Positions 1 through 10,190 of a stretch of 31,704 nt of DNA are shown piece by piece. The notes under the pieces were generated by a model. The model saw only the letters and a program-made list of their open reading frames with translations. It ran no database searches and was not told where the DNA came from. This DNA is from Thermoplasmata archaeon (GTDB taxonomy: Archaea > Thermoplasmatota > Thermoplasmata > Lutacidiplasmatales > UBA184). Location: assembly GCA_028864975.1 (NCBI GenBank), contig JAGWLG010000039.1:1-31704 (forward strand). The letters run 5' to 3'. A program made the position numbers and the translations under genes. The first letter of the stretch is position 1, and each line of letters opens with the position of its first letter.

Positions 1-127
1 GCGCCACCGTCTGTCCCGGCGGCGCGCTCTCCGCCGCCGGCGACAACGTCACCATCTCCATCGTCGACACCGCCAAGAACACCCTCCTCTTCCACGTCAC
101 CCTCCCGGGAACCACACCCAACATCCC
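1..127 (+). repeat. Exact 127-bp direct repeat, copy 1 (identical to 5311..5437)
   Basis: Base-by-base comparison: 1-127 equals 5311-5437 and the first mismatch is 128 (g) vs 5438 (t). Partial identity continues to about 152/5462, then the sequences diverge. Confidence 0.97.
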
Positions 128-3100
128 GCCCCTCTTTACGAACTACGGCGTCGTCCAGCCGGGGAGCGGCGGGACGAACCAGAACTACACCATCTACACC
201 AGCATTCGGAGCAGCGATCTCGACGACAATTCGGTCTACGTGAACCTCGCCTCGATCCCCGGCGCACCGGCCACCCCGGTCCAAATGCACCTGTGCCAGG
301 GAAGCTACGCCTGCACGCGCGGACAAGGTGTATGGACCTTCACCGAGCTTGGGGGTGCGACCACCCCCGTCTGCTGTCAGCCCTACCTCTTCGAGATCAG
401 CGCTAGGGACAACGGCACGGGGGTCCCCAGCCCCCAGCACAACAGTGTGGCCTTCAGCTACACCTTCCCGTCCGCGGCCAACACCGCGGCGCTTCTCATC
501 TCCCTGATGCTCTCGGTGGGGAACCCCACCGTGGGGCAGAACGTCGTCCTCACGGCAGATGTGGGCGACAACGGGGGGGCGCCGGCGACCGGCGTGACGG
601 TCTCGTTCTCCTCCAGCGTCACCGGCCCGATCCCGGGCACCACGACCTTCTCGAGTGTCGCCCCAGGCACCCCTGTGCCCAACCCAACGTACGATGCTTC
701 AACGAACTGGAAGGCCGGGCCCCACGCCGGGGCGGTGACCATCAAGGCCACCGCGGTCGCCACCAGTGGACAGACCGTTTCCACCACCCTCGCGGTGACG
801 GTCTTCCCGAGAACGCTGCTGATCGACGAGTCCGGCGTCGCGCCCGGGCTCAACGCCTCGCTGGACACCTTCACCTACCTCGAGACGGACATGAACTCGG
901 CCGACATCCCGTACAACGCCACCACCGTGGTCCCGGGCTCGTCGGTGATCGGTTGGGGGTGCGGCGCGCCCACGTGCCTCAACAACTACGACGTCGTGAT
1001 CTGGCTTCTCTCGAACAACGGAGCGCTCACGCCGAGCGACATGACCGCGATCAATTGCGCGACCAGCACCCCCTGCTTGGGGATGGGGCCAGGACAACGA
1101 TCGGTGTGGATCGTGGGCGGCGATGCGCTCCAGGGCGCGGCGGCCGTCTACCCCACCTTCGGCATAAGTGGGGCCGCCCTGACGCCCTTCTCGAGCACGA
1201 CCTATCCGCAGATCCTCCCGGTGGGAACGGCCTTGCCCACCACCGGGATCCTCGGCTCGAACCTCTACCTCAACGGGTGGCTTGGGGGTTGGTACACCCC
1301 GTCGTTGGCCCAATACTATGCGATCACCACTGCTGGAGGAGGGGTACCGGTCTTCCAGACCCTCGCGGGGAGCAAGACCGTGGCCTGTGCCTTCAACGGC
1401 ACTTGGCGGGCGCTCGCGATGCCCTTCGAGCTCTCCACGGTCTCTATGACCATGCCATGGGGAGGCACCACCTACCAGACCTCCCTTGGCCAGCAGGCCT
1501 CGATCGTCTACGACGCGTTCAATTGGCTCGCGAACTTCACGTCCTTGAACCCCCACCGCAACGGCAACGACTGGGCCGTGAGCGAGGTCGATGTCCAGCC
1601 CTCGACGCTGACGTTCAACACGCCCGCATACGTCAATTTCACCGTCCGCGACAACGGTCCCACCAGCGTCCCGGTCCAGGCGGAGCTCTTGGTGGACAAT
1701 CTTCCGCTTTTCGTGGGAGGGAGCGCGGTCACCACCATGGTGACCCCTTCCCCCGAAGGCGGGACCGCCCGGGCCACCTTCAACTGGACCCCCTCGTTCA
1801 TCGGCTACCTCACTGTGGGGGTCGAGATCCTGCCTCCGAGCTCAGACCTCTCCGCCCAGAACAACCTGATGGAGAACAGCCTGTTCGCGGAGCAGCTCTA
1901 CGTCCATTACAATGTGCTCCTTGTCGATGCGACCTTGAACACGGGGGTCCACCACGACACCACCGGTTACGTGTACAACGCGTTGATCGCGGACGGATAT
2001 CCCTCATCGACCATCACGACCGTCACCCTCACCAACGCCAACGGCTGCGGAAGCCTCCCGGGGGCGATCATGCTCTCCCTCACGAACAGCCCGCCAAGGT
2101 TCAACCTGGTCGTCTGGAACCTGGCCGACACCACCAACGGCACGGGCTGCCCGCTCAATCACGCGAATCTGAACGCCCTGACGACCTTCCTCGACAACGG
2201 TGGGACCAGCTCCTCCCTCCTGTTCATCGGCAACGGGCTCCTGACCGACGTGGCCGACGGGCCCGTCATCAACTTCGCCGGGACCTTCCTCGGGATCAAG
2301 ATCTCCTCTGCCGCGGCGCTCACCCCGACGGGGACCATCTACGGGGCCAGTGGCGACCAGGTCGGGAACGGGGTCGCCGTCCCCTATCCCTCGGGCCTCG
2401 CAGCGGGGAACACGACCTTCACGGCGCTCAACAACACGCCGAACGAGCTCCACGGTTTCAGCTTCTACTTCAATGACGTAGACTACTGGACTTTCCCGAA
2501 CACGCTCCATGGCGCCGGGGCGAGCGCCTACTCCATCGCGGCGGGTTGGCACACCGCCTACTGGGCGTTCAACCTGGCCACGGTGAACGGACAACCCGGT
2601 GGGACTGCGGCGCTCGACCTCTCGCTGCTCCGCTTCTCGACGTTCGCCGGGCGGCTCCTGCCTCAGCCCAACGCCATCGTCGACGCTCCCGACATCACTT
2701 TCGCCACGGCGCAGCAACCTTGGACGAACTTCGACAAGATGCACCCCCAGCTCGACCAGCAGTACCTGATCCGCGCGAACGTGACCAACCTGGGAGGCAC
2801 CACGGCCTTCAGCGTCGGGGCCCAGGTCTTCGACGGCTCCCACATCCTCGGGTCGAGCTCTGTCACCGTCGGGCCCTCCTTCCCCATCACCGGGGGTCTC
2901 AACTTCATCAGTTCCGCGACGATCTCGGTCGCCTGGACCCCGCTCTACGGGTACACCAACCCAATCAAGGTGGTCATCACCTCGGGCTTCACTGCGGGCA
3001 TCCTCCCTGGGGTCGCGCAGCAGGCCCAGTGGAACGTCACGGTCTTCTTCTTCTACGATCCCACCACCGATAACTCGAACCAGTGGACGCACGATGACAT

Positions 3101-4640
3101 GATCCAGTGGGATGAGGATGGCTCCGGATCGCCCCCCGTGGGCCAACAGATCTTCATCTCGGACGACAGCAACCAAGCGGTCGGGTCCCTCACCACGGCC
3201 GGCCCCGGGCCGAACTCGTGGGGGCAGGACACCGCGGACTGCTACATGACCGTCTGGAGCTGCACCTCCTCCGAGATCCAGGATGACCAGTCGAACAGCA
3301 ACGGCGGGAGCGTGAGCTGGCTCTACTCCGCCCCCATCCAGCTCATGGCGGGGGAGACCTCGGCCCAGGTCAACTGGTGGCAGTCCTACGACCTCTCGCC
3401 GTTCCAGAACGGGGGCATCCTCTGCGTCCTCACGAGCATGAACTGTCCCACGGACAACTCCGTGGTCGACCTGAACGCGGCCAACGGAATCGTCTCCCCA
3501 GGGCCGGGCTATAGCGGGACCATCACCTTCGGCCAGTCCGGCGCGTGCGAGGTGGTCTCGGCGTTCACCGGAGCGAATACCGGCTTCGGCAGCGCCGGGC
3601 CTGCGAACTGGCAATTCGAGACGGTCAACCTCACGCGCTACATCCCGGCCTCCGGCACGGCCACGGTCTACGTGGGGTTCGGGTTCGTCGAGGGGACCAC
3701 CTCCTGCGGGGGCTCAGCCTCGCCGCAGGAGCTCGGCTGGTGGATCGACCAACCGACCGTCCTCGAGTCCGGTGGCCCGACCACGACGGTGTCGAACAGT
3801 GCGGGATGCCCGTCTCCGGGCTCCAACATCCCTGTCGATCTCTGGCGCGTCACTCCGAGCGTCGCGCCTTCGTTCGGCGCGGCCGCTCCGCCCACCGGAG
3901 GGGCGTGGCTCTCCGGCGCAGTGTCGGGGACGAACTACGCGCTCAACCCCAACATGTGGGATTCGCTCTACTCCCGCCCGATCGATCTCTCGAGCGCCGC
4001 CAACGCGACGCTGAGCTTCAACTACGTCTGGAGCCGCAACAACGCGAACGGTGACCCTCCTATGGGGCTCATCGTCCAGGCCACGCCGGTGCTCCCGAAC
4101 GGGGAGACGAACTGGGTCCAGATATGGACCGCGAACATCGTCAACGGGGTCACGACCGGGAACGCTGACCACAACTGGCACTTCGCGAAGGTGGACCTGT
4201 CGGGCTACCTCGGGAGTGTGATCAAGCTGAGGTTCGTCCTCGGGACGAACTGCGGGCTCGACGGAGACGACCCTGGCACCTACGCCTACCCGTACGTCGG
4301 GGCGGCGGCCATGGTCTCCGGGGTCTACGTGCAAGGCGCCACTTCGATCACCGCCATACGACCTGGAGCCGCCTTGGCCGCTGCGGAGGGGAGCCCGGCC
4401 GTGTCGTCAGGGCTGAACAATGGGGCTCGCTCCCTCTTCCCCGCGAGCTCGGGAGGCTCGGAGACGCTTCCCGGAACCGCCGTGAGGACCCTCGCGCACG
4501 GGACGGCGCCGTGGATTGAGCCGGTCGGCACCGCGGGAACCTCGTCATCCTCCACGGGACCCTCGGGGCCTATGCCGTCGGACCGCGCCCCCCTGCTCGC
4601 GCCGAGCCCTCGTTCGTCGTGGGTCCGACCTTGGTCCTAG
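3..4640 (+). CDS. Giant secreted adhesin-like glycoprotein, paralog A of a tandem pilin-anchored pair (5'-truncated at window edge)
   Basis: The frame of the listed 240..4640 ORF stays open back to base 3 (ATVCPGGALSAAGDNVTISIVDTAKNTLLFHVTLPGTTPNIPP...), so 240 is not the true start. It is collinear with the 4845..10190 protein along its whole length (shared RTLLIDESG, NNYDV.WLLSN, DWAVS.VDVQPS.LTFNTP, PQPNAIVDAPDITFAT, MWDSL..RP..L). It has many N-x-S/T sequons and paired Cys, and no C-terminal TM helix. Confidence 0.85.
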   Translation, partial: ATVCPGGALSAAGDNVTISIVDTAKNTLLFHVTLPGTTPNIPPLFTNYGVVQPGSGGTNQNYTIYTSIRSSDLDDNSVYVNLASIPGAPATPVQMHLCQGSYACTRGQGVWTFTELGGATTPVCCQPYLFEISARDNGTGVPSPQHNSVAFSYTFPSAANTAALLISLMLSVGNPTVGQNVVLTADVGDNGGAPATGVTVSFSSSVTGPIPGTTTFSSVAPGTPVPNPTYDASTNWKAGPHAGAVTIKATAVATSGQTVSTTLAVTVFPRTLLIDESGVAPGLNASLDTFTYLETDMNSADIPYNATTVVPGSSVIGWGCGAPTCLNNYDVVIWLLSNNGALTPSDMTAINCATSTPCLGMGPGQRSVWIVGGDALQGAAAVYPTFGISGAALTPFSSTTYPQILPVGTALPTTGILGSNLYLNGWLGGWYTPSLAQYYAITTAGGGVPVFQTLAGSKTVACAFNGTWRALAMPFELSTVSMTMPWGGTTYQTSLGQQASIVYDAFNWLANFTSLNPHRNGNDWAVSEVDVQPSTLTFNTPAYVNFTVRDNGPTSVPVQAELLVDNLPLFVGGSAVTTMVTPSPEGGTARATFNWTPSFIGYLTVGVEILPPSSDLSAQNNLMENSLFAEQLYVHYNVLLVDATLNTGVHHDTTGYVYNALIADGYPSSTITTVTLTNANGCGSLPGAIMLSLTNSPPRFNLVVWNLADTTNGTGCPLNHANLNALTTFLDNGGTSSSLLFIGNGLLTDVADGPVINFAGTFLGIKISSAAALTPTGTIYGASGDQVGNGVAVPYPSGLAAGNTTFTALNNTPNELHGFSFYFNDVDYWTFPNTLHGAGASAYSIAAGWHTAYWAFNLATVNGQPGGTAALDLSLLRFSTFAGRLLPQPNAIVDAPDITFATAQQPWTNFDKMHPQLDQQYLIRANVTNLGGTTAFSVGAQVFDGSHILGSSSVTVGPSFPITGGLNFISSATISVAWTPLYGYTNPIKVVITSGFTAGILPGVAQQAQWNVTVFFFYDPTTDNSNQWTHDDMIQWDEDGSGSPPVGQQIFISDDSNQAVGSLTTAGPGPNSWGQDTADCYMTVWSCTSSEIQDDQSNSNGGSVSWLYSAPIQLMAGETSAQVNWWQSYDLSPFQNGGILCVLTSMNCPTDNSVVDLNAANGIVSPGPGYSGTITFGQSGACEVVSAFTGANTGFGSAGPANWQFETVNLTRYIPASGTATVYVGFGFVEGTTSCGGSASPQELGWWIDQPTVLESGGPTTTVSNSAGCPSPGSNIPVDLWRVTPSVAPSFGAAAPPTGGAWLSGAVSGTNYALNPNMWDSLYSRPIDLSSAANATLSFNYVWSRNNANGDPPMGLIVQATPVLPNGETNWVQIWTANIVNGVTTGNADHNWHFAKVDLSGYLGSVIKLRFVLGTNCGLDGDDPGTYAYPYVGAAAMVSGVYVQGATSITAIRPGAALAAAEGSPAVSSGLNNGARSLFPASSGGSETLPGTAVRTLAHGTAPWIEPVGTAGTSSSSTGPSGPMPSDRAPLLAPSPRSSWVRPWS

Positions 4641-4643
4641 AAC

Positions 4644-4675
4644 GGGACGCGTGGAACCTAAGAGCCACGCGTCCC
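4644..4675 (+). terminator. Perfect 11-bp hairpin immediately after the paralog A stop codon
   Basis: GGGACGCGTGG (4644-4654) and CCACGCGTCCC (4665-4675) are exact reverse complements with a 10-nt loop, 3 nt after the TAG at 4640. There is no clear U-tract, so a terminator or processing role is inferred. Confidence 0.6.
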
Positions 4676-4753
4676 CTGCCGGGAGCTGTGTCCATGCGCG
4701 CCCAGGGTGGGTAGCCCTAGTGGGAACGGACCTCGGCAGGGAGGCACCGCGAC

Positions 4754-4778
4754 GTTGAAATATCCGGCCGGTAAATAC
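4754..4778 (+). promoter_or_regulatory. Candidate promoter (AT-rich TATA-like boxes) for paralog B, with SD-like GAGGA at 4834-4838
   Basis: TTGAAATAT and GTAAATAC form the clearest AT-rich patch in this GC-rich spacer. GAGGA lies 6 nt before ATG 4845. Confidence 0.45.
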
Positions 4779-4844
4779 GTCATACAGCGAGAGCCACGTA
4801 GAGCCCGTTTTGGTGTGCTCTCGATGACCCCCAGAGGACATGCT

Positions 4845-5025
4845 ATGCAGTTGACGGAGCCCAAGACGAGCGCCCGAACCCCCGAACGCTCCCACCCCCG
4901 GGCCTTCTCCTCCCCACGTCGGCTCTCTCGCGGCGGCCGCCGCGCCGTCTCCGAGGTCATCGGCACCATCCTCATCCTCGCCTTGACCGTCGTCCTCTTC
5001 TCCGCCATCTTCTACTTCGTCTCCA
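4845..5025 (+). other. Class III (prepilin) signal peptide and N-terminal hydrophobic pilin helix
   Basis: A 34-aa basic leader with predicted cleavage after Ala at 4944-4946. The mature N-terminus is VSEVIGTILILALTVVLFSAIFYFVS. Confidence 0.85.
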
Positions 5026-8000
5026 CCCTCCCACCTCCCCCCTCCAGCTCCACCTCCCAGTTCTCCGCCGTCCTCGGCATCGGCGGCGGCACCTCCCCCG
5101 GGGAGTCCGACATCAACATCACCTACCAGGCCGGCCCCACCCTCGTCAGCGCCACCACCGCCATCTATCTCTCCTCCACCGTCAACGCTGCCAACTACAA
5201 CTGCGCCCGCAGTGGCAGCTACGGCAACCCCTACACCGTCTCCCAGGGACTCGCGGGTGCCCCCAATATCTGGACCGCAGGCCAGATCTGGACCCTCCAC
5301 CTCCAGGTCGGCGCCACCGTCTGTCCCGGCGGCGCGCTCTCCGCCGCCGGCGACAACGTCACCATCTCCATCGTCGACACCGCCAAGAACACCCTCCTCT
5401 TCCACGTCACCCTCCCGGGAACCACACCCAACATCCCTCCCCTCTTCCTCAACTACGGCGTCTTCGCCAAGGGGGGCGGGCCGCTCTCGGCCGGGACCCC
5501 CTACTACGTCAACACCACCGTTCGCAGCTCCGACATCAACTGCAACTCCGTCTACGTCAGCTCCTCCCTCCTCGGCATCTTCTCCACCGCTCGACAGATG
5601 ACCCCCTTCGACCGTTGTACCTACTTCAGCTTCGGACCGGTCACCAGCGGGAGCGGCGGACAGACCAACCCCACTGCGAACGTCCAGTATTCCTTCGTCA
5701 TCACCGCCAGCGACAACGGTACCGGGGCGCCCGCCCCGCAGCACAACTCCGTGATCTTCTACGCCACCTGGGTCTCCGCCTCCCAGGGGCTCGCGTCGTT
5801 CAGCGTCACCTTGACCGCCACCCCCGGGAACCCCCAGGTGGACCAAGGGACCGCCGTCACCGCGACCTTCACCAACCAAGGAGGCGCCCCCGCCTACGGC
5901 GTCAACGTGACCTTCCGGAACACCGGGACGGGATGGATCAAGGGTCCGATCTCGGACGGGCAGCTCAATGTCTCGATCACCAACTACACCACCGCCTTCT
6001 GGCACGCCGGGCCCCGCGCTGGGAACTACCAGATTTGGGTCTGGGTGAACGCCTCTGGCGGGGTGTCGAATGCGGCCCAGATCGCCCTCACGGTCTTCCC
6101 GCGGACGCTTCTCATCGATGAGTCGGGGGTGACACCTGGGACCAACGCCTCGACGGACACCTTCACCTACCTCGAGACCGACTTCAACTCCGCCGCCATC
6201 CCCTACAACACCACCATCGTGCCTCCGGGCTCCTCCGTCGTGAGCTGGGGCTGTGCTGCCCCGACCTGTCTCAACAACTACGACGTCATCGTCTGGTTGC
6301 TCTCGAACGCCGGGACGCTCTCGGCCTCCGACCAGAATGTCCTCCTGAACGCCTTCTCCCCCGGGCAACGCTCCGTCTGGCTCGTTGGCGCCGGCGCCGG
6401 TGTCGGCCTGTCGGGCGCGCTCCTCTCCGACCTCGGAGTGGCGAACCCGACCCAGGTCACGCTGTCGTCGTCCGCCCCGACGCAGCTCACGCCGACGGGC
6501 ACAAACGTGCCGCTGAACGCCCTACCCATCCAGAACTACTGGCTGGACGGATGGCTCCCCGCCCAAGGAGAGGTGGGCGCCGTGTTCGCCCAACCATACT
6601 ACACCACGAGCAACCTTGCGGGCTCGGGACAGGCCTTCCTCACCACCACGGGGAACACCTGCTCGGCGACGCAGAAGTTCTGCGACGCGGTCGACGTGAA
6701 CAGGACGTACAAGAGCATGTTCATGCCCATGGAGCTCTCCGCCGAGGCCCGCTCGATGCCTTGGGGCAGCGCGACCTCCTACGTGACCGCCCTGGGGAGC
6801 CAGGCCTCGACGGTCTACGACGTGTTCAACTGGCTCGGGAACTTCTCGGTACTGAACCCCCACCGGAGCGGCGCCGACTGGGCGGTGAGCTCGGTCGATG
6901 TTCAGCCCTCCGTGCTGACGTTCAACACCCCGTCCTACGTCAACTACACCATTCGGAACAACGGCCCGGCGAGCGGGGCCTTCACGGTCGAGCTGCTCGT
7001 CAACGGGCTTCCATATTACGTCGCGGGAACCCCGGTGACCGCCACGGTGAACCCGAGCCCGCTCGGTGGCATCGTGCGGGGCAGCTTCAACTGGACCCCC
7101 AACGAGATCGGCTTCCTCACGGTCGGGGTGCAAATCATCCCTCCCGCGGGAGACCTCGATCCAGCGAACAACATGATGTCGAACAGCCTGTTCGCTCAGC
7201 AGCTCTACGTTCACTACAGCGTCCTGCTCGTTGATAGCACGGGAAGTCTCTCCATCCCCGGCTGGACCGGCACCGCGACCTGCTTCACGGCCACGTGCCA
7301 CGACACGACCTACTTCGTCAGGAACCTCCTGCTCGCGGACGGGTTCCCGGGAAACACCATCTCGATCGCCTACGTGACCAGTCCGACCAACTCCTTGGGG
7401 GCGACGGTCCTTTCGGCCCTGCAGGCCGCCCCCCCGCGCTTCAACCTCGTGGTCTGGAACCTGGGCGACGAGATCGGGACTTCATCTGTTTGCCCGGTCA
7501 GCAGCACGGACATCACCGCGCTCCAGACCTTCCTGAACAACGGAGGTAGGACCTCCTCGCTCCTGTTCGTGGGCGGCGGGCTCGTCGCCACCAACAGTGC
7601 GTGTACCGGCTATGCGTCGACGAGCGCGTTCCTCTCTGGCTATCTCGGTGTCTTGGCTCCATCCCCTGCAAGCTCCGTGGTCGCCGGGGCTGTCCTGTAT
7701 GGTCAGATCGGGAACCCCGTCGGGAACGGCGTTGCCCTAGCGTATGCGGGAACCGGAGTCGGAATCGGGAACTACACCTGGCACCAGTTCGGCGCGACTC
7801 CCCCTGGCGACTGGAAGCAGTTCTCGCTCTATTACAACGCCCCGGATCCTTGGAGCATACCCGCCAACCCAAACGTTGCGGCCTCTAACCTCTACTCGGG
7901 CACAGGTGGATGGCATGCGGGGTACTGGGCGTTCAACATCGAAGGGGTCGCCGCGGGGGGAGGCGTGGGAGGGCTCGAGACGTATCTGTTGCAGTTCGCG

Positions 8001-10190
8001 ACCTTCAGCGGACGGCTCCTTCCGCAACCCAACGCCATCGTCGATGCTCCGGACATCACCTTCGCGACGGCGCTGCAGCCCTACATGAACTTCGACCAGA
8101 TGCATCCCCAGCTGAACCAGCAGTACCTGATCAATGCGAACGTCACGAACCTCGGTGGGAGCGCCGCCTTCTCCGTGGGCCTCCTGCTCTACGACGGGTC
8201 GCACATCCTTGGATCAGGTTCCGTTACGGCAGCGCCCGCGAGTTCCAGCGCGGGGGGGAATGTCAGCGCAGGGTCCGGGACTCTTTCGTTCGCATGGTCG
8301 CCGATGTTCGGTGCAACGAACGCCATCTCGGTAAGGATCACGACCGCCACCACCGACGGCATCATCCCAAATGTCTACCAGTATGCGGTCTGGAACCTCA
8401 CGGTCTACTTCTTCTATGATGACGGGGGAGCCGGCGAGAACGTTTGGACCCACCAGCAGCTCTCCTTGTGGCAGGACGCTCAATCCCCGGCGTGCGGGAC
8501 CCCGCTCACCGGGCAGAGCATCTACTACTCAGGCGGGAAGACCAACGTTCCGGTCATGTGGCCCCAGGGGCCCTCATCCTCTACCTTCCAAGGGTATGAG
8601 CCACCCGGGAACCCTTACCCCAGCTATGGAGTGGGAAGCTCCTACGGCTACTACTCGACAGGAAACGCCGTCTCCTGTACGGACAACTTCTACGACACGA
8701 ATACTGGCATCACGACATTCATCAACGGATACATCCCTGGCTACCCCAACTTGGAAGTCACCGGATGCACCAGTAACCCATCAACGAACTACTACTTCCA
8801 GATGAAGGACAATATCGGCAACTACGAGGGGTACTGCCCGGGCCACTGGGCCATGGATGGAATGGGCCCAGCTGACACGGGAGCCACAGGGGACGCTTGC
8901 TACGCGGTCATAGGGTCCACCTTCTGCGCATCGCTGGGCATCCTGGACGACTTCGAGAACCCCGACTTCGTCACCTCGTGGGCCTATAGCTCTCCCATCA
9001 CCATCCCCGGGGATGCAGGTACGTCGGCGTACGCCCAATGGTTCCAGCGATACGATCTCTCCGCCTCCTTCACCGGGGTCGTCGCCTGCGTTTCGTATTC
9101 GACCAACGGTGGATCCACCTGGCAGGGGACAGGATCGAACGCGGCCTGCAATGCAGGTCCCCGGGGGATCATCCCCACACCGGGACCAGGGTACACCGGT
9201 ACCGTTCCGCTCGGAGGGTCATGCACCCCCGTCAGCACGTTCACGGGCTCAAGCGCGAGCGGGACGTTTGGATGGGAGCTGGAAAGGATGGACCTCTCTC
9301 AGTACGCCGGCGACATGGTGCGCATCGGCTGGGACTACCTTGAGGGCAATCTGGGAGGCTGCGGAGGTGCCAACCCCACATCTCCCCAGGCCGGGTACTG
9401 GGCGAACAGCCTGGACATCTACACCACCAACGGCGGAACGATCACCTCCTCCGACCAGGTGACACCGCCCGCGATCCCCCCCGACCTCTGGCACGCAGCC
9501 ACGCGGCCCTACCTTGCGGGGCTGAGCGGGTACGGCGCTCCCCCGGCCACGGCCCAGGGCGGATGGCTCGCCGCCGCTCCGAGCGGCACGGGGACCCTGA
9601 CGCTCGACCCGAGCATGTGGGACTCCCTCGTGACCCGACCGGTGTCGCTGACGAATGCCGCGGGAGCGACCCTCTCCTTCGACTACCTCATCAATCGCAA
9701 CACGGGTGCCGCTGCCCCCGCCCAAGGCATGGCGGTCTTCATCAGTCCGGTTCTGTCGAACGGGGCCACTTCCTGGATCCAGATATGGAACGGGGGAACG
9801 GACGGGGTTTCGGGCACAAGCTGGAACCATGCGGGCCCGATCTCCCTCACGGGTTACCTGGGCGGGGTAGTCGAGCTCGCCTTCGTGGCGGGGACAAATA
9901 ACCTGGCCAGCGTGGGATATCCGAATCCCGGAGCCATGATGGTGACGGACGTTACGGTCTCGGGTCCCACCATCGTCTCCGCGATCGCCACGAACCCGGG
10001 GAGCTACCCGACCTCCCCGGCCCTCCAACAACCGACCCTGACGGTCTTCCCGGCTCCCGGTCAAATTGTCGGTGAGCTACATTTCATGTCACCCCAGGGC
10101 GGGACGGCGGCCCCTGTCGGATGGACCCCCCTAGCCGGGTCAGCTCCCAGGAGCCCGTGGCCCTCGGGCAAGTGGAAGGCCGGCGCCTGA
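4845..10190 (+). CDS. Giant (about 1,781 aa) type IV pilin-like / class III signal peptide adhesin, paralog B
   Basis: ATG 4845 follows an SD-like GAGGA (alternative start 4824). The leader ends ...GGRRA|VSEVIGTILILALTVVLFSAIFYFV, matching the archaeal Pilin_N/PibD cleavage pattern (compare KG|VSPVIGVILMVAITV). Next come Ig/CARDB-like segments, two alpha/beta modules and two MAM/cleaved-adhesin-like jelly-roll segments (SWAYSSPITI...WFQRYDLS...WELERMDLSQY...GYWANS). It has many sequons and Cys pairs. Confidence 0.88.
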   Translation: MQLTEPKTSARTPERSHPRAFSSPRRLSRGGRRAVSEVIGTILILALTVVLFSAIFYFVSTLPPPPSSSTSQFSAVLGIGGGTSPGESDINITYQAGPTLVSATTAIYLSSTVNAANYNCARSGSYGNPYTVSQGLAGAPNIWTAGQIWTLHLQVGATVCPGGALSAAGDNVTISIVDTAKNTLLFHVTLPGTTPNIPPLFLNYGVFAKGGGPLSAGTPYYVNTTVRSSDINCNSVYVSSSLLGIFSTARQMTPFDRCTYFSFGPVTSGSGGQTNPTANVQYSFVITASDNGTGAPAPQHNSVIFYATWVSASQGLASFSVTLTATPGNPQVDQGTAVTATFTNQGGAPAYGVNVTFRNTGTGWIKGPISDGQLNVSITNYTTAFWHAGPRAGNYQIWVWVNASGGVSNAAQIALTVFPRTLLIDESGVTPGTNASTDTFTYLETDFNSAAIPYNTTIVPPGSSVVSWGCAAPTCLNNYDVIVWLLSNAGTLSASDQNVLLNAFSPGQRSVWLVGAGAGVGLSGALLSDLGVANPTQVTLSSSAPTQLTPTGTNVPLNALPIQNYWLDGWLPAQGEVGAVFAQPYYTTSNLAGSGQAFLTTTGNTCSATQKFCDAVDVNRTYKSMFMPMELSAEARSMPWGSATSYVTALGSQASTVYDVFNWLGNFSVLNPHRSGADWAVSSVDVQPSVLTFNTPSYVNYTIRNNGPASGAFTVELLVNGLPYYVAGTPVTATVNPSPLGGIVRGSFNWTPNEIGFLTVGVQIIPPAGDLDPANNMMSNSLFAQQLYVHYSVLLVDSTGSLSIPGWTGTATCFTATCHDTTYFVRNLLLADGFPGNTISIAYVTSPTNSLGATVLSALQAAPPRFNLVVWNLGDEIGTSSVCPVSSTDITALQTFLNNGGRTSSLLFVGGGLVATNSACTGYASTSAFLSGYLGVLAPSPASSVVAGAVLYGQIGNPVGNGVALAYAGTGVGIGNYTWHQFGATPPGDWKQFSLYYNAPDPWSIPANPNVAASNLYSGTGGWHAGYWAFNIEGVAAGGGVGGLETYLLQFATFSGRLLPQPNAIVDAPDITFATALQPYMNFDQMHPQLNQQYLINANVTNLGGSAAFSVGLLLYDGSHILGSGSVTAAPASSSAGGNVSAGSGTLSFAWSPMFGATNAISVRITTATTDGIIPNVYQYAVWNLTVYFFYDDGGAGENVWTHQQLSLWQDAQSPACGTPLTGQSIYYSGGKTNVPVMWPQGPSSSTFQGYEPPGNPYPSYGVGSSYGYYSTGNAVSCTDNFYDTNTGITTFINGYIPGYPNLEVTGCTSNPSTNYYFQMKDNIGNYEGYCPGHWAMDGMGPADTGATGDACYAVIGSTFCASLGILDDFENPDFVTSWAYSSPITIPGDAGTSAYAQWFQRYDLSASFTGVVACVSYSTNGGSTWQGTGSNAACNAGPRGIIPTPGPGYTGTVPLGGSCTPVSTFTGSSASGTFGWELERMDLSQYAGDMVRIGWDYLEGNLGGCGGANPTSPQAGYWANSLDIYTTNGGTITSSDQVTPPAIPPDLWHAATRPYLAGLSGYGAPPATAQGGWLAAAPSGTGTLTLDPSMWDSLVTRPVSLTNAAGATLSFDYLINRNTGAAAPAQGMAVFISPVLSNGATSWIQIWNGGTDGVSGTSWNHAGPISLTGYLGGVVELAFVAGTNNLASVGYPNPGAMMVTDVTVSGPTIVSAIATNPGSYPTSPALQQPTLTVFPAPGQIVGELHFMSPQGGTAAPVGWTPLAGSAPRSPWPSGKWKAGA
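5311..5437 (+). repeat. Exact 127-bp direct repeat, copy 2 (identical to 1..127)
   Basis: Direct comparison. It encodes ATVCPGGALSAAGDNVTISIVDTAKNTLLFHVTLPGTTPNI. Confidence 0.97.

Follow-up and report, generated by a model that had tools for sequence, protein, structure and literature searches.

The pilin-encoding 5′ parts of two giant tandem genes in a Thermoplasmata archaeon, hereafter paralogs A and B, have most probably been made identical by recent non-reciprocal gene conversion between old paralogs. Both genes lie in the window analysed here, that is, the whole 31,704-nt stretch of contig JAGWLG010000039.1. Such an event means concerted evolution restricted to one structural module of giant modular pilin-like proteins in an uncultured archaeal lineage, and it hints that both giant proteins share one processing and assembly route.

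Two giant tandem genes with a pilin module

Paralog A lacks its 5′ end because the contig begins inside the gene, and its open frame in the window (positions 3–4640, forward strand) comprises 1,545 of 1,701 codons. The full-length protein (P0164, 1,701 aa) comes from a better public assembly, where it is encoded on a 566,829-nt contig; the window part is 100% identical to its residues 157–1701 over 1,545 residues. Paralog B (4845–10190, forward strand) is an ORF whose translation, 1,781 aa long, has Pilin_N and CARDB matches. Both genes have orthologs in the sister species G002, that of A being colinear with 81% amino acid identity. A and B are arranged in tandem in direct orientation, and their neighbours are housekeeping genes, not a pilus locus.

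As judged from sequence and structural models, A and B are giant surface proteins of modular build that resemble archaeal type IV pilins: behind a class III signal peptide, each has a complete pilin domain and then ~1,500 residues of beta-rich domains with a MAM-like C-terminal end. The archaeal type IV pilin N-terminal region of B (4941–5177, forward strand) consists of a charged leader, a cleavage motif RRA/VSEVIG, and a hydrophobic helix also present in the model; it is recognized by both Pfam (PF07790, E = 1.2e-8, 36.1 bits with the cut-off at 25.2) and NCBIfam (TIGR02537, 27.5 bits with the cut-off at 20). The module has a pilin fold, modelled by AF2 with a pLDDT of 87 as a helix (residues 11–37) and a beta-sandwich (strands within residues 49–166). 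In Foldseek, the module is closest to the pilus of Hfx. volcanii (8fj5_A, E = 2e-4) and to Natrinema PilA2 (8gi2); further archaeal pili and archaellins rank behind these two, and the TM-scores are modest (0.3–0.5). Further downstream, B carries a CARDB (Ig-like) domain in its body (6885–7130, forward strand; PF07705, E = 1.6e-8) and, near the C-terminus, a MAM-like jelly-roll domain in the variable “tip” region (9474–9971, forward strand). The latter was recognized by structure alignment of the model with VIA-align, giving Z = 12.6 for the InhA2 MAM domain (4yu5_A; pLDDT 64–84 in this part of the model) and Z = 10–11 for the MAM domains of meprin, RPTP-mu, and neuropilin; the NCBIfam choice-of-anchor J family scored under its cut-off on this domain. 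Prepilin cleavage of both proteins is predicted, and they may be built into pili. The genome contains four T2SSE ATPase matches over the cut-off, and Peptidase_A24 has no match in the genome assembly, which is 89.6% complete.

The same module was found at the N-terminus of 340 representative proteins or clusters in a search of 1.84 billion representatives. The best 150 of these 340 proteins are from 95 to 2,520 aa long, and the matches mostly stop at the linker that ends the module; payload domains on the module homologs include PKD, FG-GAP, Laminin_G_3, and CARDB. One module type is thus combined with widely differing payloads in hundreds of protein clusters, which agrees with the view of the earlier note that the pilin module is a plug for large payloads. 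With a complete pilin module joined to unrelated domains, and homologous modules on differing payloads, these proteins match the plan of modular type IV pilins.

Each of the two genes also possesses its own TATA-like box, 5′-UTR hairpin, and Shine-Dalgarno-like site. In B, the TATA-like box (TTGAAATATCC, 4755–4765, forward strand) lies ~90 nt upstream of the ATG and is a putative promoter. Its conserved AAATA core is kept upstream of five genes in the genomes G000, G002, and G003 of genus g1, and a gene from another genus (G019) has GATATA at this position. The hairpin of B (4788–4823, forward strand) has a B-type stem and is situated outside the converted tract. RNAalifold predicted 14 pairs from six homologous leaders, 7 of them with compensatory changes, and the minimum free energy is −18.3 kcal/mol in B and −21.9 kcal/mol (z = −3.1) in the A copy found on another contig, C95. 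The hairpin has no match in Rfam.

Extent and edges of the identical tract

Window positions 1–127, which correspond to codons 157–198 of full-length A and represent the 3′ end of the identical tract in this gene (forward strand), exactly match positions 5311–5437 of B. As the earlier note had observed, the identity then collapses: the first difference is at 128 versus 5438, ~12 mismatches occur in the following 42 nt, and the remaining parts of the two genes are 50–65% identical. The end of identity does fall at the PNIPP inter-domain linker (5424–5438, forward strand; B residues 194–198), whose proline is the same in all 12 sequences of an alignment and which, in the AlphaFold model, separates the pilin beta-sandwich from the domain that follows. 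Outside the tract, the longest exact match is the 24-nt one already pointed out (863–886 = 6155–6178), the next being 18 nt. The block 2661–2720, given as an example of synonymous divergence, is indeed conserved, but its partner is 8022–8081 and not 8021–8080, and the synonymous differences affect ~40% of the conserved codons rather than most of them (85% nucleotide identity, 19/20 aa).

The contig was suspected to start within a longer repeat, and the other end of this repeat is present on C95, whose last 120 nt (C95:120–1, reverse strand) are identical to window positions 4832–4951 and which carries the absent 5′ end of paralog A. Moreover, residues 1–201 of full-length A are 100% identical to residues 1–201 of B, as would be expected if the repeat covered the entire leader and pilin domain. 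The C95 match and the protein identity, together with the 127-nt match, therefore suggest an identical, presumably converted tract of ~606 nt (4832–5437 in B, forward strand) that extends from 13 nt upstream of the ATG to the PNIPP linker and so includes the SD-like AGAGGA, the class III signal peptide, and the complete archaeal pilin domain. In the central 359 nt of the tract, A equals B at the protein level according to full-length A, and the assembly breaks point to the same at the DNA level; the 566-kb contig might itself have been filled here from a collapsed repeat.

The identical module accounts for the breaks of short-read assemblies at these genes. Another set of partial proteins in the databases, P0003 and P0010, starts at the same residue within the module; therefore, a separate short-read assembly broke at the module too. 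Exact matches elsewhere in the assembly were found for 162 of the 248 contig ends, with lengths from 43 to 144 nt, and just one of these lengths is 127 nt, so the agreement of this number with the largest SPAdes k-mer is a coincidence. Additional copies of the module had also been anticipated, but BLASTN and TBLASTN searches of the genome (89.6% complete) returned the two giant genes only, with neither further nor silent partial copies.

Origin of the tract

Synonymous divergence is not uniform along the two genes: according to NG86, the A/B dS is 0.03 in the tract and 0.62–1.31 elsewhere, with a pS of 0.42–0.62 in the body at a GC3 of 85%. In the tree of the bodies, the A orthologs form one group and the B orthologs another, both supported at 100%, and AU tests reject a pairing by genome (p = 1.7e-11 and 3.9e-51), which indicates an old duplication. 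The divergence outside the tract and the grouping of the bodies by orthology therefore argue for recent gene conversion of old tandem paralogs, as had been proposed. The module tree is incongruent with that of the bodies, since the modules of G002 A and G002 B pair with each other (94/90) with G000 as a sister, and in G000 the A and B modules are identical; the alternative topology has an AU p of 0.07. The UTRs hold orthology, with an A-type versus a B-type hairpin, up to position −14, and the flank on C95 shows synteny with the sequence that precedes the A ortholog in G002. Since UTR orthology is kept up to −14, the tract has two breakpoints, at −14/−13 and at codon 198, both of them sharp, which speaks for conversion and not for a single crossover. 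A low-dS tract between two breakpoints and a conflict between the trees of tract and flanks are both expected of gene conversion, and both are seen here.

In such a conversion, ~606 nt would have been copied from one paralog onto the other by recent non-reciprocal homologous recombination, with each gene retaining its own promoter, 5′-UTR hairpin, and payload. The module, which is the best-conserved part of the protein (dN 0.15 versus 0.45 in the body), could supply the homology required for recombination. Its conversion may be harmless or useful if both proteins need the same prepilin peptidase and the same filament, whereas conversion of the body would wipe out a distinct payload; these are probably the reasons why the tract is confined to the module. 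As to the direction of transfer, the 5′ edge of the tract looks A-derived, and the signals inside the leader are mixed (RGGRRA is A-like, PRRL is B-like).

In the sister species G002, the A and B modules share only ~77% nucleotide identity without any identical block, and their dS (0.65) is as saturated as that of orthologs, the whole range, including comparisons between species, being 0.65–0.79. Given this saturation and the AU p of 0.07 for the alternative module topology, the evidence that conversion has been repeated within the genus is only moderate. The phenomenon has a second occurrence in another genus (G020), where two modules are ~95–97% identical at the nucleotide level over 610 nt, 125 nt are repeated exactly in the next tandem gene, and a paralog body is just 39% identical in amino acids. 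In G029, homogenisation of a tandem pair affects the opposite end, namely the C-terminal 3.5 kb, and C-terminal tips are swapped out between close relatives.

The earlier note saw in the tract a candidate archaeal system of programmed cassette exchange or antigenic variation, in which the module serves as a recombination hub that swaps adhesin payloads onto one expressed plug. A constant 5′ module on diverged payloads, the many payloads borne by this module type across the 340 protein clusters, the near-identical modules in a second genus, and the replacement of C-terminal tips among close relatives would all suit such a system. However, the genome has only two copies, both complete, in direct tandem orientation, and each with a promoter-like box, a UTR hairpin, and an SD-like site; besides, the homogenised piece is the constant part and not the variable payload. 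The ORFs of the window and 8 kb of flanking sequence on C95 revealed no recombinase gene, nor were there significant inverted repeats, the best being 16–32 nt, imperfect, and scattered. With no silent cassettes, recombinase, or such repeats found, cassette exchange is therefore unsupported, and we regard it as quite improbable. The lack of an identical block in G002 and the homogenisation of the G029 pair at its C-terminal end also count against it, and opportunistic homologous recombination between tandem paralogs fits better than a dedicated mechanism. Thus, the A/B tract is a real case of a known process, gene conversion, and not of programmed antigenic variation, and an archaeal antigenic-variation system is not established by it. 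It is also unlikely, though conceivable, that the module is no mere by-product but acts in this Thermoplasmata family as a portable homology handle by which giant payload genes are repeatedly re-assorted, deleted, or amplified, making up a primitive archaeal surface-variation system; recombination of the 606-bp direct repeats could then switch the display of A versus B across the population, and C-terminal tips could pass between strains.

A chimeric 5′ end could likewise stem from unequal crossing-over or from partial duplication in very recent times. The former is known to occur in tandem direct repeats, and the copy number of the family varies between genomes, but a B-type UTR up to −14 combined with a B-type body past codon 198 needs two exchange points, and a single unequal crossover would leave one or three genes where there are two, as in G002; such an origin is improbable. 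An artefact, with the first 127 nt borrowed from paralog B or with two strains merged, is suggested by the start of the identity at the very first base of the contig and by the assembly, which is fragmented and metagenome-like, with matches elsewhere for 65% of its contig ends. It is nevertheless very unlikely: the contig continues unbroken past the shared 127 nt into sequence specific to A, C95 independently terminates in the same repeat, two other deposited assemblies agree (one of them with full-length A), and the sole consistent order, i.e., C95, module, A body, B UTR, module, B body, is the same as in G002. Finally, the identity might be held without recombination by purifying selection at the nucleotide level, e.g., on mRNA structure or translation signals, for which the low dN of the module could be adduced; yet the saturated dS of the module in G002 A/B and between species means that close relatives have no such constraint, which renders this explanation extremely improbable. 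Gene conversion accounts for the tract best.

Comparison with known systems

Like Neisseria pilE/pilS, the A/B pair combines gene conversion in pilin genes with a common conserved 5′ region. Neisseria has a single expressed gene besides numerous partial copies that are silent and lack promoters; there, it is the variable 3′ part that moves, and a G4 element is required. In contrast, A and B are two complete loci with promoter-like and SD-like elements each, and the piece copied between them is the constant one, so that variation of the pilE/pilS type was rejected. A constant N-terminal part with alternative C-terminal parts is also a feature of Campylobacter fetus sap, which has a single promoter with inversion, and of the IncI1 R64 PilV shufflon, which depends on the Rci recombinase and sfx inverted repeats. 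Neither a shufflon nor an invertible-promoter system describes A and B, as these are direct tandem genes, each with its own promoter-like region, and no recombinase or notable inverted repeats were found.

Gene conversion in archaeal chaperonin subunit genes is said to have been described by Archibald and Roger in 2002. The A/B tract resembles known cases of gene conversion and concerted evolution between prokaryotic paralogs (surveyed in PMC6053082; for the tandem lpl cluster of Staphylococcus aureus, see PMC2568036), in that a stretch is identical within a genome, the flanks follow orthology, the layout is tandem, and RecA/RadA-type homologous recombination is the presumed mechanism. What sets the tract apart is that its limits are those of a single structural module of giant surface proteins, comprising the entire pilin domain and the signal peptide.

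Among archaeal pilins, the adhesion pilins PilA1–6 of Haloferax volcanii are likewise paralogs with an identical N-terminal segment, a 30-residue H-domain (Esquivel et al. 2013, via PMC7002104). Only this hydrophobic H-domain of small dispersed pilins is common there, whereas in A and B, which are giant and in tandem, the shared part spans the full leader and the globular pilin domain (201 aa, ~606 nt). Large “adhesin-like” proteins with class III signal peptides have been described from archaeal type IV filament loci (PMC4858521, PMC13705601; the term “gene conversion” does not occur in the latter). A and B are similar to them in being large and secreted, with pilin-type signal peptides and Ig-like or adhesin-like domains, but differ in lying among housekeeping genes outside a pilus locus. 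A bacterial modular type IV pilin, PilB of Streptococcus sanguinis (PMC8179133), differs in that the A/B fold is that of archaeal pilins, the A/B payloads are ~ten times larger, and filament incorporation is putative here; the common plan is a pilin module joined to a functional or adhesive module, with related genes bearing differing payloads.

The identical pilin module and its extent

The two tandem giant pilin-like genes, paralog A (3..4640, its 5′ end open) and paralog B (4845..10190, 1,781 aa), share a stretch of exactly 127 nt, window positions 1-127 being the same as 5311-5437. Past this block, about 12 mismatches fall within the next 42 nt, and the remainder of A and B is 50–65% identical. 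The missing 5′ end of A lies on another contig of the same assembly, C95, whose end (minus strand) carries 120 nt identical to window 4832-4951. This overlap comprises 13 nt of the leader and 107 nt from the start of the coding sequence; beyond it, on the upstream side, C95 and the window differ. In the sister species G002, A and B also stand in tandem, and what precedes the A ortholog there is syntenic with the C95 flank. A protein cluster look-up additionally provided full-length A (P0164, 1,701 aa, encoded on a 566,829-nt contig), and the exact B protein is likewise found on a 566,829-nt contig. P0164 equals the A of the window in all 1,545 residues and is identical to B over residues 1-201. 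Thus, the identical tract spans 4832-5437 (606 nt), of which 247 nt are identical at the DNA level, while for the middle 359 nt we infer identity from the proteins and from repeated assembly failure. Partial A and B proteins from another assembly (P0010 and P0003) begin at a common residue within the module, indicating that this assembly also broke there.

The earlier note had taken 127 nt for the SPAdes k-mer length, but the contig-end overlaps rule this explanation out. In the assembly (124 contigs, 89.6% complete), of which the window is contig C27, 162 of the 248 contig ends have exact matches elsewhere, and the overlaps are spread evenly over 43–144 nt and do not peak at 127. Such a spread suggests read-length-limited extension into repeats. 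The number of matching ends places many contig breaks at repeats, which could be bridged with long reads.

Outside the tract, the longest exact match between A and B is indeed the 24-mer pointed out earlier (863-886 = 6155-6178), the next being 18 nt. The protein block proposed as an example of synonymous divergence is conserved, but the partner given for 2661-2720 has to be moved by one base, to 8022-8081; in this alignment, 85% of nucleotides and 19/20 amino acids are identical. A and B do differ at synonymous sites, but “most” of them is an overstatement, because with 66% GC in the window and a GC3 of 85% in gene B such sites saturate near 50% difference.

Gene conversion between old paralogs

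Synonymous divergence is far from uniform along the two genes, as had been expected for gene conversion, with an NG86 dS of 0.03 within the visible tract and of 0.62–1.31 elsewhere. In a tree of the gene bodies, the A orthologs of G000 (the genome of the window) and G002 form one group and the B orthologs another, each with 100% support, and pairing of the bodies within genomes is rejected (AU p = 1.7e-11 and 3.9e-51). Since the bodies group by orthology, the A/B duplication is older than the split of the species. The identity starts at position −13 and has its second edge at codon 198, so two exchange points are needed while the number of genes stayed at two; this argues for conversion and against a single unequal crossover. 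The A/B pair is a case of concerted evolution by gene conversion, and the converted unit is the whole pilin module of these giant modular pilins from an archaeon. The 5′ edge (ACATGCT-ATG-CAG) is A-type-like, but the leader interior is mixed, which leaves the direction of transfer uncertain.

Concerted evolution of this kind is known from prokaryotes (PMC6053082, PMC2568036). The nearest archaeal precedent that we found, as cited in PMC7002104, is the identical 30-residue H-domain of Haloferax volcanii PilA1-6. As to why the module is kept alike, the A and B proteins may both have to be cut by a single peptidase and to fit a single filament interface, and the conserved module might itself supply the homology that recombination needs.

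Recurrence in relatives and the question of programmed variation

The A and B modules of G002 share only about 77% of their nucleotides, with a saturated dS of 0.65. Their proteins pair in the module tree (94/90), and the alternative topology is weakly disfavoured (AU p = 0.07), which suggests that they were homogenised longer ago or are simply under strong constraint. G020, from another genus of the same family, has a complete giant gene on contig C31 that matches the module at the C81 end in 579 of 610 nt, UTR hairpin included, while a paralog body on C36 is just 39% identical in amino acids. The first 125 nt of C31 (5,743 nt, L043) repeat exactly the start of the gene on that contig; the next tandem gene thus has the same beginning. 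The module at the C81 end (L044) is 95–97% identical to that on C31; the differences cluster in the codons directly before the signal-peptide cleavage site (KRRIRGVSD versus KPKPRAVSD).

Homogenisation is not universal, since five other multi-paralog genomes (G012, G015, G024, G026, and G028) gave no nucleotide matches between paralogs of at least 80%. In G029, two tandem family members of 2,139 and 2,134 aa (L024 = G029:C4:17500-37000) show 98.9% identity along 3,483 nt at their 3′ (C-terminal) ends (L024 5176-8658 and 11573-15052, reverse-strand coordinates), whereas the N-terminal (5′) 2.6 kb, pilin module included, is about 66% identical. This mosaic is a mirror image of that of A and B. 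Tandem paralogs of this family thus recombine commonly, yet the exchange is not tied to one end.

A cassette-exchange or antigenic-variation system with further copies of the module had been proposed from the sequence of the window. A and B lie in direct orientation, and each is a complete gene preceded by a TATA-like box, a UTR hairpin, and an SD-like site of its own. Apart from A and B, BLASTN and TBLASTN searches of the assembled genome found just the stub on C95 and a small pilin on C102, thus two giant copies instead of more, and no silent copies. Housekeeping genes (phosphoglycerate mutase, Trm5/Tyw2, PEP-utilising enzyme, GH5 cellulase, and others) surround A and B, and the window and 8 kb of C95 contain neither recombinase nor pilus genes; the inverted-repeat search gave just short imperfect pairs, none of them meaningful. 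Programmed variation in A and B is, therefore, improbable.

Elsewhere, G000 encodes T2SSE-type ATPases as well as three small Pilin_N genes that cluster at C104:139646-145503; Peptidase_A24 gave no match in this incomplete assembly. The pilin on C102 (34231-34779; L023:3211-3798) is a stand-alone protein of about 200 aa, 39% identical to the module. It and the C104 genes are candidates for the major pilin of a filament that A and B might join. On C95, a 459-aa ORF with no Pfam match (191-1570, minus strand, L022) separates the G002-syntenic block from the beginning of paralog A; G002 lacks an equivalent at this place, so the ORF may be an insertion.

Leaders, protein architecture, and the wider family

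The 5′ UTRs keep their orthology: G000 and G002 both retain a conserved hairpin in an A-type and a B-type form. In paralog B, the hairpin (4788-4823) lies between the TATA-like box (about −90) and the SD-like AGAGGA. Its homologs are found in the leaders of giant pilin genes on C95 (L022:108-192, minus strand) and at the loci L016 (13274-13358 and 8028-8112, minus), L021 (1736-1820), and L008 (4094-4178, minus). Across six genes from three genera, 7 of the 14 predicted pairs have compensatory changes, and the loop CGTAG...TTTTG is conserved; no Rfam family matched. The hairpin may be a regulatory element. A G-rich run at about 4705-4745 upstream of B was considered as a candidate G4 element like that of Neisseria pilE and set aside, being unremarkable in a genome of 66% GC.

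Residues 33-111 of protein B match Pfam Pilin_N; B also matches TIGR02537 and CARDB, and a PDB sequence search gave no match at E ≤ 1. Neighbours in the ESM Atlas put the organism in Thermoplasmata. An AlphaFold model of residues 25-252, built from an 80-sequence alignment (pLDDT 87), begins with a long helix at the N-terminus, continues as a beta-sandwich, and passes through a short linker into a second beta domain, of which it covers the start. Among PDB structures, the model comes closest to the type IV pilus of Haloferax volcanii (8fj5_A, E = 2e-4) and to Natrinema PilA2; further archaeal pili and archaellins come next. According to both alignment and model, the PNIPP linker, where identity ends, is a conserved domain boundary.

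With the 176-aa module as query, HMMER found 340 proteins at E ≤ 1e-3 in a full scan of 1.84 billion representatives. Among the best 150 of these (95 to 2,520 aa), the module is almost always N-terminal, and the matches mostly stop at the linker. The payload domains behind it include PKD, FG-GAP, Laminin_G_3, and CARDB, so the notion of one plug with many payloads holds on the evolutionary scale. The same pilin-module-plus-payload concept is described for bacterial modular pilins (PMC8179133), and the notion likewise fits the large adhesin-like class III signal-peptide proteins of archaeal censuses (PMC4858521, PMC13705601). The label of putative adhesin is reasonable.

The model of the C-terminal 452 residues of B is poor (pLDDT 48), with the core alone usable; this core is predicted to be a MAM-like jelly-roll, with Z = 12.6 against the InhA2 MAM domain and Z = 10–11 against those of meprin, RPTP-mu, and neuropilin. 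Two pairs of A homologs (P0006 and P0007, P0012 and P0013) are 93–100% identical in amino acids over their first ~1,150–1,200 residues and drop to 28–77% in the C-terminal ~450, roughly corresponding to window A residues from ~1200 to the end. In genes that are otherwise nearly the same, the MAM-like tip thus seems to have been exchanged or to be hypervariable.
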